A stretch of DNA of 64,000 nucleotides. Origin: Eledone cirrhosa. Taxonomy: Eukaryota. This document shows, one piece after another, positions 3,585 to 62,400 of the stretch. Made by a program: the position numbers and the translations under genes. Every line of letters starts with the position of its first letter. The stretch's first letter is position 1. A model generated the notes under the pieces. It was not told the DNA's origin and made no database searches. It saw only the letters and a program-made list of their open reading frames with translations. The stretch covers positions 9,176,001 to 9,240,000 of the forward strand of contig OZ024750.1 of NCBI GenBank assembly GCA_964016885.1, written 5' to 3'.

Positions 3585-3832
3585 GGGAAGAAACATAATA
3601 GTACCACTGATGATGTCGCAGATGTGCGACGAAAGAACTTTGATAGACTATATATATCTGTATTTTTAACCGCTGGTCAATCATTGATAAATATTGATTG
3701 CCAAATAAATTAAATATGGCGATATAAATGATACAGAATCGAAAACCAACCCAAACCAAACAGTTAGTGTGTTCTGTTGTTATTTCTGACAATATTATAA
3801 CAATATGACCCTCCCCAAATATGACAATATAT
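3585..3832 (+). mobile_element. PLE-like short element family A, carrying an HHR core
   Basis: Its 3' part (GAAAACCAACCAAACAGT..ATGACCCTCCCCAA..ACAATAT) recurs at 37037-37330 and 52985-53250. Flanked by (TA)n. Confidence 0.7.
3601..3645 (+). ncRNA. Hammerhead ribozyme-like motif (helix I weak)
   Basis: CTGATGA(3607)-T-GTCGCA-gatg-TGCGAC-GAAA-GAACTT: perfect 6-bp helix II between the two conserved boxes. Confidence 0.6.
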
Positions 3833-4027
3833 ATATATTTGTTAAAGCATATTTTAATGAATTTATATATTTCATAAAAGTTATTTTATTTTTATTCTAG
3901 AATGTTTAGTGCATAGAATAACCCAGGGAAACATTTCTTAAAGCATATTTTAATAAATTTATAAATAAACGGTCTATGAATAAGTATACTTAAAGGTAGG
4001 ACGTAATGCCGACATTAGTATTAGAGA

Positions 4028-4305
4028 CAAGGGCTTTGTTTCAGGAGGGTCCCAGGGGACAAGTCCCCCTCCCTTTTTCAAACGTCTATATTTTATTTTT
4101 TGTTTATTTGATATAATAAATTCTTTTTAAGCTTATTTGTTTTTATCTGAACTTCATTTGAATATATAAAATTTAATTAGCGTAAAATTTTCCTTATGTG
4201 ATAGGGTCCGGGAAAGGGACCTTAAGCAATACTAACATGCTCCTTTAAGAATCAACAAATGTTGGTTTGTCCCCCCTCACATTTTTAAGGCAAATGAAGC
4301 CCCTG
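4028..4305. mobile_element. hAT-type MITE with 8-bp TSD
   Basis: Imperfect TIRs CAAGGGCTTTGTTT / AAATGAAGCCCCTG. Identical ATTAGAGA at 4020-4027 and 4306-4313. Confidence 0.8.
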
Positions 4306-5197
4306 ATTAGAGATATATTAGTTCATGTCTCTTTTAGCGCCTACTTATTGGGCTTTGAATACGATGATTGGTTTCCATGACCTCGATATTCTTGCTAGGT
4401 GATGGCATCTCGATATTTCAATATGTTTATCTGCTCCATTATCCCAAGTGTATAACGTATTAATGTTTTCTATGTATTACATAAAACAACATTCTAAGGA
4501 CAGCTGTTTGATGCTGATAGTGGTGATCGTAAAATAACAAACTTTGAGCTATTCCATTATATATATATATGTGTGTGTGCGTGTGCGTGTGTGTATATGG
4601 GTGTGTTTGTATGTGTGCATGTATGTGTATTGCTTGTGTGTTTGTTTGTGCGTGTGTATGTATGTGTTTGTGTGTGTATGCGTGTGTTTGTTTATATGTG
4701 TGCGTGTGTTTGTGTGTTTGTGTATGTGCGTATATATATATGTATATGTGCTTGTTTATGTATGTGCGTATATATATATATGTATATGTGTTTGTTTATG
4801 TATGTATGTGTGTGTATGTATATATATATATATATATATATATATATATATATATATGTGTGTGTGTGTAATATATGTGTCACTGTTCCCTTAACCTGGT
4901 CTGTTGCTAAGTCGACATATTTGTTATTATTGAAACACCTTTGTCAGTATTGCTATTGTAATCCATTAACTAAGGTTCCGGTTAAGAAGAATCTACAATG
5001 AATCCCAGTCGACATCCAAGATTTCTGTTCACCTATTTAGACACAAGGCGCTTTGAGTCGTCACGTCTGCATGGTAATTACCAGCCTATGACAAAGAGAA
5101 ACTTCCATGTAAAATTCTGTCACAACAAATTTCTCACTCGAAGTTAATGATACGATAGCATTAGTATTATTTGGTAGTCACTAAGGAGATCCTAAGC

Positions 5198-5432
5198 AGG
5201 TGAGAAGCTCTGAAGAGGGAGAGGAACTCTGAAGAAGGTGAGAAGTTCTGAGAAAGGTGTGGTGCTCTGAAGAAGGTGAGGTGTACTGAAGAAGGTGAGA
5301 AGCTCTGAAGAAGGAGAAGAGCTCTGAAGAAGGTGAGGTGTACTGAAGAAGGTGAGAAGCTCTGAAGAAGGAGAAGAGCTCCGAAGAAGGGGAGGAGTTC
5401 TGAAGAAGTTGAGGTGCTTTGAAGAAGATGAG
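5198..5432. repeat. ~19-bp minisatellite (GAAGAAGGTGAGAAGCTCT)n
   Basis: About 12 degenerate tandem units. Confidence 0.9.
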
Positions 5433-59405: not shown

Positions 59406-60005
59406 ATGGTGGCTGCCAACTCGTTTTCGACTACGGCCACTACTTTATATCCATGTAGGAGAACCCCTACCGATGCGCTGAACGAGTGTGACTTTTTAGT
59501 CCAGCCAGCGACTTGAAAACTCTGGTACAAACACTACACCTGTGACAATTGTTGACACATAGTGCTGGGCCCATGGTACCATGTGACAAGTGCAGAGAGA
59601 TCTCCAGATATAAAGCAATGCCTGTGCCGTGAAGCTTTTATAGTGAGCAAAGGCACTGCACAAAGCCAGTCCCACTCTCTTAACCAAGATGATATTTACC
59701 AAAAAGAAGAACAAGTCATTGGATACCATCAGGATTGCAGGTGTTATATCAGAGTTTTCCTTCTCCTAGAATTCTGCCTTGACAAAGGCTAAGGGGTCAT
59801 CTCTCCCGGTGATTTGGATGGCCATTGACTCTTAAGAGCTCCTTTGCCCTTTGACAGGTTTTGTTTTAGTCCTGTAGGATGTCCAAAGTCACCCTCCTCA
59901 CCAAGAAACCTTGGTGGGGTTGCCAGTTTAGTCGCCAACGACCCGACCATGGGACAGGTTGTACTGGGATACATGTTACCAGTAGCACCAATTGGTGACC
60001 TGACA
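59406..60005 (-). mobile_element. Full copy of the ~610-bp repeat
   Basis: Reverse complement of 7100-7711. Confidence 0.88.
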
Positions 60006-60189
60006 TAGCATACATACATACATTCCCCCTCCATACACACGCACGCATGTGTGTGTGTATCTCTGTGGTATCATGACTCACACACTGCTGATTTTCCTGG
60101 CATTTGTACATTATTCTATGTACTATACATGCACATTTGATCTGTTGTAGTGCACATGAGCACTGTACACAATAATTCTCATTATTATT

Positions 60190-60378
60190 GCGGTGGATTG
60201 GCAGTATCGGTAGAGGGTCGGACGCCATGCTTTGACGCATAGAGATACGGCCCTTGCCATTCTGAGTTCAAATCCCGCCGAGGTTAACTTTGCCTTTCAT
60301 CCTTACGGGGTCGATAAAATAAAGTACCAGTAATACACTGGGTAATTGCTGACCTTGTGCCAAAAGTAGAAACAATTA
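60190..60378 (+). mobile_element. SINE family 1, full length (further copies at 61003-61222 and 61245-61435)
   Basis: A/B boxes, central domain and tail. Confidence 0.9.
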
Positions 60379-61861
60379 TTATTATTATACATATATAACT
60401 TAATTTGGAGCAAACAAATTAACTTAAACCAAAAGTATTTCCCACTTTTTCCCGAACGCTACAGAGCTGCTTCTGTCCCCTGAAAACCTGATGAGCTCTA
60501 AATATTTTTAACACCAGACCAGTCGTTATCCAGCCGTGACCATCCTCACTTTTCTATTAAAGCGTACTGTATTTATCACTATATTGTCCAATGTGTTCTT
60601 GTTTATTTTTAAGAGTGTCGGCTTTGAATGTAATTTTTTAGGAATTTGGCTGCTATTACTTGCAGATCGAACGACTATGTAGTCGCACCCCTCGTAGGCA
60701 CTTTCTTAAAGTACAGGCTTCAGGTTAATTTTGACAAAGGAAAGAGCTTTGTTTGCTAGTTTCAGCTGATTCCTGCTCTGTTTATACTTTAGTTTGCCTT
60801 ATACAATGTAAGCATAAGTTTCAACCTGACACATGATCCAAAACATTCTTTTAACTTCAACCAGCATATCCTTTTTCAGATATTCTGTACTTTAGTCTAT
60901 ATAATCAAAGTTGACCTGATTTATGATGTGAGAGTTCAATGTTTACTGAATTGGAACAGCCTGTGTCAATCTCAATAAAGATTCATTATTAAGGTATTTA
61001 CCGGGTGTGGATTGGCAGTATCGGTAGAGAGTCGGACGCTATGCTTTGCAGCAGACAGTTACGTCCCTTTATGATCTGAGTTCAAATCCAGCCAAGGTTA
61101 ACTTTGCCTTTCATCCTTTCGGGGTCGATAAACTAAAGTACCAGTCACGCACTAGGGTCGATTTAATCGACTTTCCCCTCCCTCCAAATTGCTGGCCCTG
61201 TGCCTATATAAGAAACCATTATTAAGAAATTTAACAATGAATACGGGTGTGATAGTTGGCAGTATCGGTAGAAGGTCGGGCGCTATGCTTTGCAGCATAG
61301 AGTTACGTCCCATTTACGGTCTGAGTTCAAATCCCGCCGAGGTTAACTTTGCCTTTCATCCTTACGGGGCCGATTAAATAAAGTACCAGTAATGCACTGG
61401 GGTAATTGCTGGCCTTGGCCAAAAGTAGAAATAATTATTAAGATATTTAGGGCGTCGTCAACAATACGTTGCTGTGATCTTTACATTCTGAGTTCGAATC
61501 CCACCGCAATCAACTTGGCCTGTCAACCATTGAAGTCAATATATAAACTGCTGACATGCCGTCTAAATTAGAAACACTGCCCCGCACTATGCATGGAACC
61601 TGTCACCCTCTTCCCTTCAATCTCTTTTTCTTCCGTGGCCTAACAGTCCTTGTTCTTTTCCCCCTTTTCTTCTCATTTATGGCATTTATAATCCTTTCCT
61701 TTACTTTCCCATACAGCCAAATCTGACCTTTACTCCTTCCACCCCACTTTATTTTTCATTACTTGATATCGTTTTTACCTTTTTTTTCATATTTCCATCA
61801 TTGTATAACTTCTGTTTGTAAAATATATATACATATATACATATATTATATATATATATAT

Positions 61862-62400
61862 AGAGAGATTTTGAGTTTATGTTGGTTGTATACCAACACC
61901 TCAGTATGCAGGCTGGAGCACTCGACGAGGTGCGCAGGTTGGTTTGGTTACTCCGGAGTAGTGTAAAATAAAGTTAAATAAAAGTCAAATGATTAAAATT
62001 TAGCTTCGTTTATTACTGCTATATATATTTCAGTGACAGCCATCTTTGGCTGTGACCTCTTCAGGCAGTTTGAATTAGTATGGTATAGACAAGTACAAAT
62101 GTTGTTGAGGTGTATAATATTGTCAATACTCTGATATGCCCAGTTCCTTGTTGGGTTGTTATTTCACTGAGGAACTGGAATCATATATAATCGTATATAA
62201 TAACAACCCAACAAGGAACTGGGCATATCAGAGTATTGACAATATTATACACCTCAACAACATATGTACTTGTCTATACCATACTAATTCAAACTGCCTG
62301 AAGAGGTCACAGCCAAAGATGGCTGTCACTGAAATATATATAGCAGTAATAAACGAAGCTAAATTTTAATCATTTGACTTTTATTTAACTTTATTTTTTA
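61862..62400. mobile_element. Head-to-head PLE-like family G element, ~198-bp arms, one HHR per arm
   Basis: 61965-62163 is a near-perfect reverse complement of 62199-62397. Flanked by (TA)n. Confidence 0.88.
62293..62347 (+). ncRNA. Minimal type I hammerhead ribozyme (mirror copy 62015-62069 on -)
   Basis: ACTGC-CTGAAGA-G-GTCACAGCCA-aaga-TGGCTGTCAC-T-GAAA-TATATA-TA-GCAGT. Confidence 0.85.

Follow-up and report, generated by a model that had tools for sequence, protein, structure and literature searches.

Large numbers of minimal hammerhead ribozymes, solitary or paired on opposite strands, have already been reported from truncated Penelope-like elements (PLEs; Cervera and de la Pena 2014, PMC4209133). 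PLEs of the Hydra clade are recognized by RW[KR] and DKT motifs, a CxCx5C linker, and CxxC and CxH motifs, and one of them, Hydra-1_Obim of Octopus bimaculoides, is listed with a hammerhead in the supplement of the same study (Craig et al. 2021, PMC8557442); the hammerhead of an anole PLE requires protein (Frangieh et al. 2024, PMC11167929). We analyzed 64,000 nt of the 3.0-Gb assembly of Eledone cirrhosa (contig OZ024750.1, positions 9,176,001 to 9,240,000; hereafter "the window"; ~45% low-complexity, 28,788 bases masked), in which a first-pass annotation had described a swarm of short non-coding elements carrying minimal hammerheads. Our results indicate that these motifs are, very probably, type I hammerhead folds in the 3′ pseudo-long terminal repeats (pLTRs) of at least eight PLE families, left in the genome as 5′-truncated or fold-back stubs.

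The motifs have the CUGANGA/GAAA/UH core in three helices, with helix I open, of type I hammerheads; families H (a change at U4), I (a U3-A8 variant) and E (a helix II of 2 bp) depart from it. The main sites, named here by the position of C3, are 28680(+), 46824(−), 50212(+), 51571(−), 62298(+) and its mirror 62064(−). A strict type I descriptor finds four sites in the window (50212, 51571, 62064 and 62298), against means of 0.02 (helix I of at least 4 bp) and 0.067 (helix I of at least 3 bp) and a maximum of 1–2 in local dinucleotide shuffles (two block sizes, 150 shuffles each). A relaxed descriptor, adjusted after inspection of the window, finds five CUGANGA, two CAGAAGA and one UUGAAAA motifs, against none in 60 shuffles per core. 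Site 46824 is missed by both descriptors because its helix II consists of a U.U and two G-C pairs; its family consensus shows the same helix II. In an out-of-sample test, 43 blind tiles of 10 kb (430 kb) held 40 CUGANGA motifs vs. none in 8 shuffles. Together with 12 later tiles, scanned without a shuffle control and with a slightly wider gap limit, the 55 tiles (550 kb) hold 56 motifs of three cores, i.e. 102 per Mb (bootstrap 69–138; both arms of a palindrome counted).

Chance matching in AT-rich, microsatellite-rich DNA has been considered as the source of the motifs, given that CUGANGA alone is common (~14–15 per shuffled window) and that Rfam reports no hammerhead: its hammerhead models give no match in the window at the gathering threshold, none is among the matches at E≤10 in two short stretches of the window, and at E≤1 the 150 listed of 466 matches for the whole window are dominated by microsatellite alignments to miRNA models. 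However, shuffles yield 0–2 full motifs, the blind tiles exceed their controls, and the families recur at a fixed position relative to PLE open reading frames (ORFs); the shuffle controls and the ORF-linked pairs of family C described below refute this explanation, the probability of which we regard as negligible.

The tile density is close to that of the window (8 motifs in 64 kb, 125 per Mb), and the window is therefore typical of its genome. The nine window families contribute 21 pieces to the 64 kb of the window vs. 65 to the 550 kb of tiles, an enrichment due in part to their having been picked from the window. Extrapolation from the tiles gives about 0.2–0.4 million intact motifs genome-wide, and a pooled set of 294 loci (1.36 Mb, many of them targeted) holds 393 motifs in 35 clusters. 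The first-pass annotation had thus placed its five main sites and the mirror correctly, at a frequency far above shuffled controls, and the sites it had called partial or degenerate (3607, 15793, 15960, 30215–30253, 35190 and 51351) are real family members, the one at 35185 being a diverged relative of 30253. Its estimate of about eight families is borne out for eight and missed a ninth (family I, with a U3-A8 core); its description of an unusually dense population applies to this genome relative to published animal counts, not to the window relative to its own genome.

By sequence linkage, all eight families A–H trace to Penelope-like reverse transcriptase (RT)/endonuclease ORFs, in line with the earlier suggestion of many PLE families. 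In family C, all three fetched same-strand pairs of hammerheads, ~4 kb apart (L115–L117; such labels denote individual genomic loci compared with the window families), hold an ORF between the two ribozymes, which is uninterrupted in two cases (737 and 738 amino acids) and frameshifted in one. The 737-residue ORF of L116 contains an RT with YRDD followed by a GIY-YIG endonuclease with a YVG motif. The window element, with perfect inverted arms, is ~98% identical to this full-length copy, and its ORF fragment matches residues 410–728 of the L116 protein at 100% identity; with this fragment and its mirror (Table 1), the window is not devoid of coding sequence. All 40 scored candidates for the family C motif, i.e. 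the best 40 by similarity of the 620–3598 first-look candidates obtained per family, are 100% identical. A 200-base assembly gap at 24251–24450 adjoins the inverted arm and hides the left end of the window element.

The other families show comparable arrangements. An ORF with one stop and one frameshift lies between two hammerheads of family H in L235, and L236 (family G) reads, in order, inverted arm, ORF, 3.3-kb untranslated region (UTR), hammerhead and start of the next copy, so that a pLTR-ORF-pLTR layout is seen in L115–L117, L235 and L236. The ORF starts ~200–230 nt downstream of the ribozyme in C, G and H, and families A, C, D, G and H have 3′ UTRs of 1.0–3.3 kb that are rich in simple repeats (1.2–3.3 kb in L116, L236, L256 and L061). 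Family A is linked to an ORF in L061 and L063, with the endonuclease end 1.24 kb upstream in 3/30 loci; in family E, same-strand endonuclease ends lie ~210 nt upstream in 5/25 loci; and in loci picked by upstream query, an endonuclease lies ~2 kb upstream of family D (8/25) and an RT/endonuclease upstream of family B (7/25), the latter with nucleotide homology common to the copies and a weak RVT_1 match. The family F ORF ends ~310 nt upstream in 5/25 loci and is seen in L259–L261 and L344. At a single locus (L064), a family I copy follows, at a distance of 1 kb, an RT/GIY-YIG ORF that has a Pfam GIY-YIG match. Three further ORFs were rejected as neighbors: one beside a B copy (L062), one that ends in the tail of another family, beside a D copy (L258), and an endonuclease 2.7 kb upstream of F (L261).

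As judged from protein motifs and identities, six families (A, C, D, E, G and H) are of the Hydra type, which is already known from Octopus. The family C protein has the motifs RWR, DKT, CxCx5C, CxxC-x-x-E and CxH; the linker, CxxC and CxH recur in the G protein, and RW and DKT in the L258 ORF; and A, D, E and H are placed by 34–52% protein identity to C. The 183 homologues of the C protein are 30–42% identical, the closest named ones (39%) being from Argonauta hians. The 3′ ends of the A, C, D, E and H references run into (TA)n, as judged by eye and uncounted. In an RT tree whose rows include no published reference sequence, A, C, the D-upstream fragment and the L258 ORF form one weakly supported group of eight rows (81/75, drawn open), apart from G, H and E (25 rows). 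Families B, F and I have Cys-rich linkers in their translations and may belong to the Neptune/Nematis clades, for which a Cx2-5CxxC linker and a CCHH endonuclease are characteristic.

Table 1. Features of the window (HH, hammerhead; positions are those of the 64,000-nt stretch)
Feature	Position	Strand	Remarks
Family C PLE, Hydra type	24451..28860		inverted arm 24451-26822, sense arm 26822-28860; 5′-truncated, (TA)n end
Family C RT-thumb + CxCx5C linker + GIY-YIG fragment, 329 aa	25834..26823	−	mirror 26787-27155(+)
Family C type I HH	28672..28737	+	long helix II, C.C at pair 4; TATATA helix III; predicted cut after 28729
Family A fold-back stub	61968..62419		HH 62015-62069(−) and 62293-62347(+); predicted + strand cut after 62342
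Family D stub	51451..51635	−	HH 51513-51579, C.C at helix II pair 4
Family B stub	50152..50299	+	minimal HH 50208-50243, extra A after A9, ACGU palindrome
Family B stub, decayed core at 15793	15671..15912	+	decayed copy of 50212 family
Family E stub with short fold-back	46692..46861	−	HH 46791-46828, CAATTG palindrome
Family F stub	3578..3838	+	HH core at 3607
F-related HH, core 51389	51352..51393	−	87% identity to 3607 motif, one family group
Family G fold-back stub, core 30253	30124..30318	−	helix I 5′ strand lost to fold-back
Further family G pieces	19494-19536(−); 35118-35272		second is a diverged palindrome
Family H stub, U4A core CAGAAGA at 15960	15951..16100	+	fits relaxed descriptor; U.U at helix II base, 5-bp helix III
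Further family H copies	3455-3547(−); 51073-51180		
Family I stub, U3-A8 core 50399	50356..50520	+	ninth family, absent from first-pass annotation
Further family I copies	35774-35900; 15414-15668		cores 35814, 15503/15563
Host OATP/SLCO transporter exon-containing ORF	47295..47906	+	Pfam OATP E=1.4e-19
Next detected OATP exon	~50588-50698	+	Pfam E=2.1e-5
SINE-like pieces	13167-13468; 30751-30865; 34918-35091; 44317-44519; 49435-49788; 51813-51996; 57276-57743; 60190-60370; 61002-61440; 62978-63511		
540-600 nt repeat	7107-7706; 43382-43896; 59410-59998		copies 90-95% identical
Short perfect palindromes	17840-18090; 37060-37262; 37480-37573; 46405-46579; 50327-50390; 53032-53236; 62583-62661		
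Minisatellite arrays	39471-41001; 9318-9719; 5194-5432; 52704-52866		units 58-60, 35, 19 and 15 nt

The first-pass annotation had alternatively proposed non-autonomous, retrozyme-like derivatives. It is conceivable that some stubs are self-propagating mini-elements of 130–250 nt, retrozyme- or SINE-like (short interspersed nuclear element), that borrow the PLE protein: family G copies often begin at the ribozyme (15/30 tail-selected copies, 14/24 in untargeted flanks), the top matches of B and F mostly stop 60–160 nt upstream, the tail would contain the RT start site, and retrozymes have been proposed to be PLE derivatives (bioRxiv 10.64898/2026.07.22.740005). Nevertheless, we consider this improbable. 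Retrozymes are defined as tandem units without coding capacity, whereas a same-strand partner within 1 kb was found in only 5/210 loci (vs. an inverted partner, an arrangement already known for PLEs, in 81/210), the window holds no head-to-tail array of complete hammerhead units, and longer coding copies exist in every family, 8/8 of the families A–H being linked to ORFs. Moreover, the 5′ junctions vary between copies, and none of 60 copies picked by the tail alone (30 G and 30 C; queries beginning 9 and 15 nt past the cut site) begins 5 nt or less from the cleavage site, on which ground we also reject the idea that the stubs are copies of ribozyme-cut RNA. The stubs are, in our reading, the ends of coding elements.

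The breakpoints themselves point to how the stubs formed. Sixteen of the 30 G copies part from the reference between −7 and +10 relative to C3. Fourteen of these fold back, with at least 11 different junctions among them, one runs into (TA)n, and one, dropped from the count (leaving 15/30), has an internal deletion. Of the 30 C copies, 11 break at −85 to −93, where a short palindrome lies. What look like further breaks, at −464 in G and −180 in C, reflect microsatellite indels within copies that extend further. Such varied, family-specific breakpoints, none at the cut site, suggest early termination and snap-back on an uncut template, in agreement with in vitro work that found the main substrate to be unprocessed RNA (PMC11167929). 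The stubs end in (TA)n/(CA)n repeats and retain a 100–200 nt tail downstream of the ribozyme. The family G loci L389–L418 have a fold-back hotspot at the helix I 5′ strand, with palindromes carrying two nearly complete opposite-strand ribozymes. Mirror pairs cannot serve as dimers: their members lie on opposite strands and so form no cis dimer within one transcript. Two other data sets were set aside: a breakpoint survey of untargeted flanks (3/165 within 3 nt of the cut site) was replaced because microsatellite matches contaminate it, and contigs of two sequencing runs, in which the pLTR is far deeper than the ORF and no cut-site joint occurs, were left unused because contig depth does not equal copy number.

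We propose that the endonuclease would nick AT-rich DNA, and that the RT, priming internally in the RNA at a point 3′ of the ribozyme, would copy through the ribozyme; most events would end after a few hundred bases or snap back at a hotspot particular to the family, and the ribozyme may be over-represented because it lies near the end copied first. Selection likely keeps ribozymes in active source elements, where they would probably act slowly on tandem read-through transcripts, cutting these as dimers or aided by the element protein; the stubs are likely dead on arrival.

Several observations weigh against parts of this interpretation. The 737-residue C protein has no Pfam match, RVT included, and its GIY-YIG part reaches only E=0.053; the family F protein has no match in a Pfam search, and is a putative PLE protein by its RT and GIY-YIG motifs. 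Most loci of each family have no ORF within 1.5 kb, and re-mobilization of short stubs is therefore conceivable; two pairs of G copies have common junctions (L186/L187, L404/L418); and ranking by similarity under-samples old or odd copies among the scored candidates. Within young families the helices show neutral-looking decay and no covariation. In addition, the full three-helix fold is not the predicted minimum-energy structure of any of nine isolated motifs, p(15.1–16.1) is ≤0.21 in all nine, and family C is predicted to fold otherwise.

The ribozymes differ in architecture. Family B has the textbook minimal form, U.U stands at 10.1–11.1 in E, G and H, a pair described earlier (PMC3088659), and helices III are 4–5 bp in G and H; helix I of family H appears, by eye, to extend past a bulge. 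Position 4 of family H is A in 25/25 targeted copies, a query-biased set, and in 16/18 untargeted ones; the only natural change named at this position in the accessible part of PMC3088659 is U4C. Families A, C and D have neither the extra nucleotide nor G10.1-C11.1, and are marked by a conserved internal mismatch. A mismatch-tolerant scan for long helices II (first 8 pairs) gave 172 matches in 33 clusters. Pair 4 of helix II is unpaired in all 21 clusters whose helix III encloses 6 nt (C.C in 16, C.U in 4, C.A in 1; the 5′ C is invariant), whereas pairs 2, 3 and 6 are paired in 21/21 and pair 5 in 20/21, with three pair types each; the helix III hexamers are self-complementary, with G.U allowed, in 20/21 (TATATA, TGCGCA, TGATCA, TACGTA and others). 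Of the remaining 12 clusters, 11 have a paired position 4 in helix II. The family C master falls outside the filter of the scan, yet also has C.C. Since these clusters are related by RT grouping, the pair-4 mismatch probably arose once and was kept across ~50% protein divergence.

The ribozymes are hence not all minimal as first described (the families of 15960 and 30253 have the longer helices III), and the combination of a minimal form, a palindromic helix III and cleavage as dimers fits A–E and I, not G, H and F. Pairing is kept and covaries between families, as claimed, with the limit within young families given above; the helices do not differ completely, 28680, 51571 and 62298 having one architecture. 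Other genomic hammerhead classes (L133, L016, L097, L181, L199 and L248) have a loop II of 30–36 nt, C.A at 10.1–11.1 and an 8-nt helix III palindrome. We tentatively suggest, as a possibility on the unlikely side, that this Hydra-type lineage carries a distinct hammerhead subclass. Its members would combine long helices I and II, a 6-nt palindrome in helix III and, at pair 4 of helix II, an invariant C opposite a pyrimidine; this conserved mismatch would provide a new contact, tertiary or with protein, by which cleavage is turned on in the dimer or ribonucleoprotein (RNP). A PDB search gave no match; in metagenomes, a poor place to look, 53 matches to the C.Y pattern included none that folds and none with a PLE match; and a search of mainly open-access literature found no account of a long helix II C.Y class or of a fixed U4A family.

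Self-cutting of the window motifs is a prediction. The hammerheads could instead be catalytically vestigial, or act in the retroelement RNP as signals for folding or for the binding of protein, a reading that concerns function and is compatible with a PLE origin. Family H has spread while carrying the U4A core, the young family C has A.C at 10.1–11.1 and misfolds in silico, minimal PLE hammerheads cut poorly in vitro (PMC4209133), one of nine Xenopus dimers cut (bioRxiv 10.64898/2026.07.22.740005), and ribozyme mutants left in vitro insertion unaffected (PMC11167929). However, the core, the UH site, helix pairing and a palindromic helix III persist between elements whose RTs are only 35–52% identical, a compensatory U3-A8 family is among those kept, and the anole hammerhead cuts with protein and is rescued by C3G/G8C (PMC11167929). 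We favor cleavage, and hold loss of the scissors function to be rather unlikely.

Sense-strand hammerheads 50212 and 50399 fall between two detected exons of a host OATP/SLCO transporter gene (47906–50588); if they cut, its pre-mRNA would be severed. The window also contains an interspersed repeat of ~200–300 nt, probably a SINE, with more than 20 pieces, three copies of a longer repeat, and short perfect palindromes that give spurious Rfam miRNA matches and are probably ends of the SINE, or of other Penelope-like families, that folded back (Table 1). Of the minisatellite arrays, that of 19 nt is the source of many CUGANGA matches without a fold.

A separate ribozyme mobilome is not supported by these sequences: the motifs are the ends of coding Penelope-like elements of a known kind, and, as that kind is already known, our main result is a correction of the retrozyme-like reading. 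What is added is a very high load of intact motifs that Rfam misses; a young family C, with intact ORFs and identical copies, as a tractable system for the role of the PLE hammerhead; and, in the C.Y helix II class and the fixed U4A core, natural variants open to direct assay. If ~0.3 million intact motifs, many of them intronic, are indeed present, genomes of the octopus type would rank with the most ribozyme-dense known and would lend themselves to testing whether PLE ribozymes cut host pre-mRNA. Our search of mainly open-access literature found no account of this hammerhead load, and the accessible part of a 2026 Octopus vulgaris repeat annotation describes 31 recently active Penelope-like families and uses neither "hammerhead" nor "ribozyme" (PMC13282606).

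Compared with known systems, the copies described here have in common with non-LTR retrozymes (PMC7229834; bioRxiv 10.64898/2026.07.22.740005) a type I hammerhead and short non-coding repeats related to PLE pLTRs; however, retrozymes are head-to-tail tandems of 150–450 bp that yield circular RNAs, whereas copies here are single or head-to-head. In PAc Poseidon of Anolis (PMC11167929), as here, insertions retain the stretch 3′ of the ribozyme, no copy has its start at the cut site and targets are AT-rich, although that element is of another clade and its ORF overlaps the ribozyme instead of starting downstream of it.

The minimal hammerheads of metazoan PLEs (PMC4209133) are likewise of type I and in both pLTRs, are mostly solitary in truncated copies or form opposite-strand pairs 100–700 bp apart, occur as many consensus families per genome, and show the extra nucleotide after A9 (B and F here), the palindromic helix III and U3-A8 (I); unlike them, A, C and D have an internal mismatch, and G and H have longer helices III. 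The accessible alignment of that study contains no cephalopod and has two single entries with a helix II mismatch, without comment. Thousands of motifs per genome were reported there vs. ~100 per Mb here, with different descriptors; counts of ~9,000 in Xenopus (PMC4209133), 126,247 in axolotl (PMC7229834; 28 Gb according to bioRxiv 10.64898/2026.07.22.740005) and 235 Rfam matches in giant squid (PMC6962438) also rest on different descriptors, and the comparison is rough.

Hydra-clade PLEs (PMC8557442) correspond to the six families in their C-terminal GIY-YIG, their motifs, (TA)n targets and a hammerhead near the 3′ end, and their hammerheads often have U.U at the helix II base, like E, G and H; none in the accessible part of file S2 has a C.Y mismatch as the fourth pair of helix II, or A in place of U4. 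Published members are mostly shorter than 3 kb, whereas A, C, D, G and H have long, repeat-rich 3′ UTRs, and the families found here, unlike those members, are many and of very high copy number.

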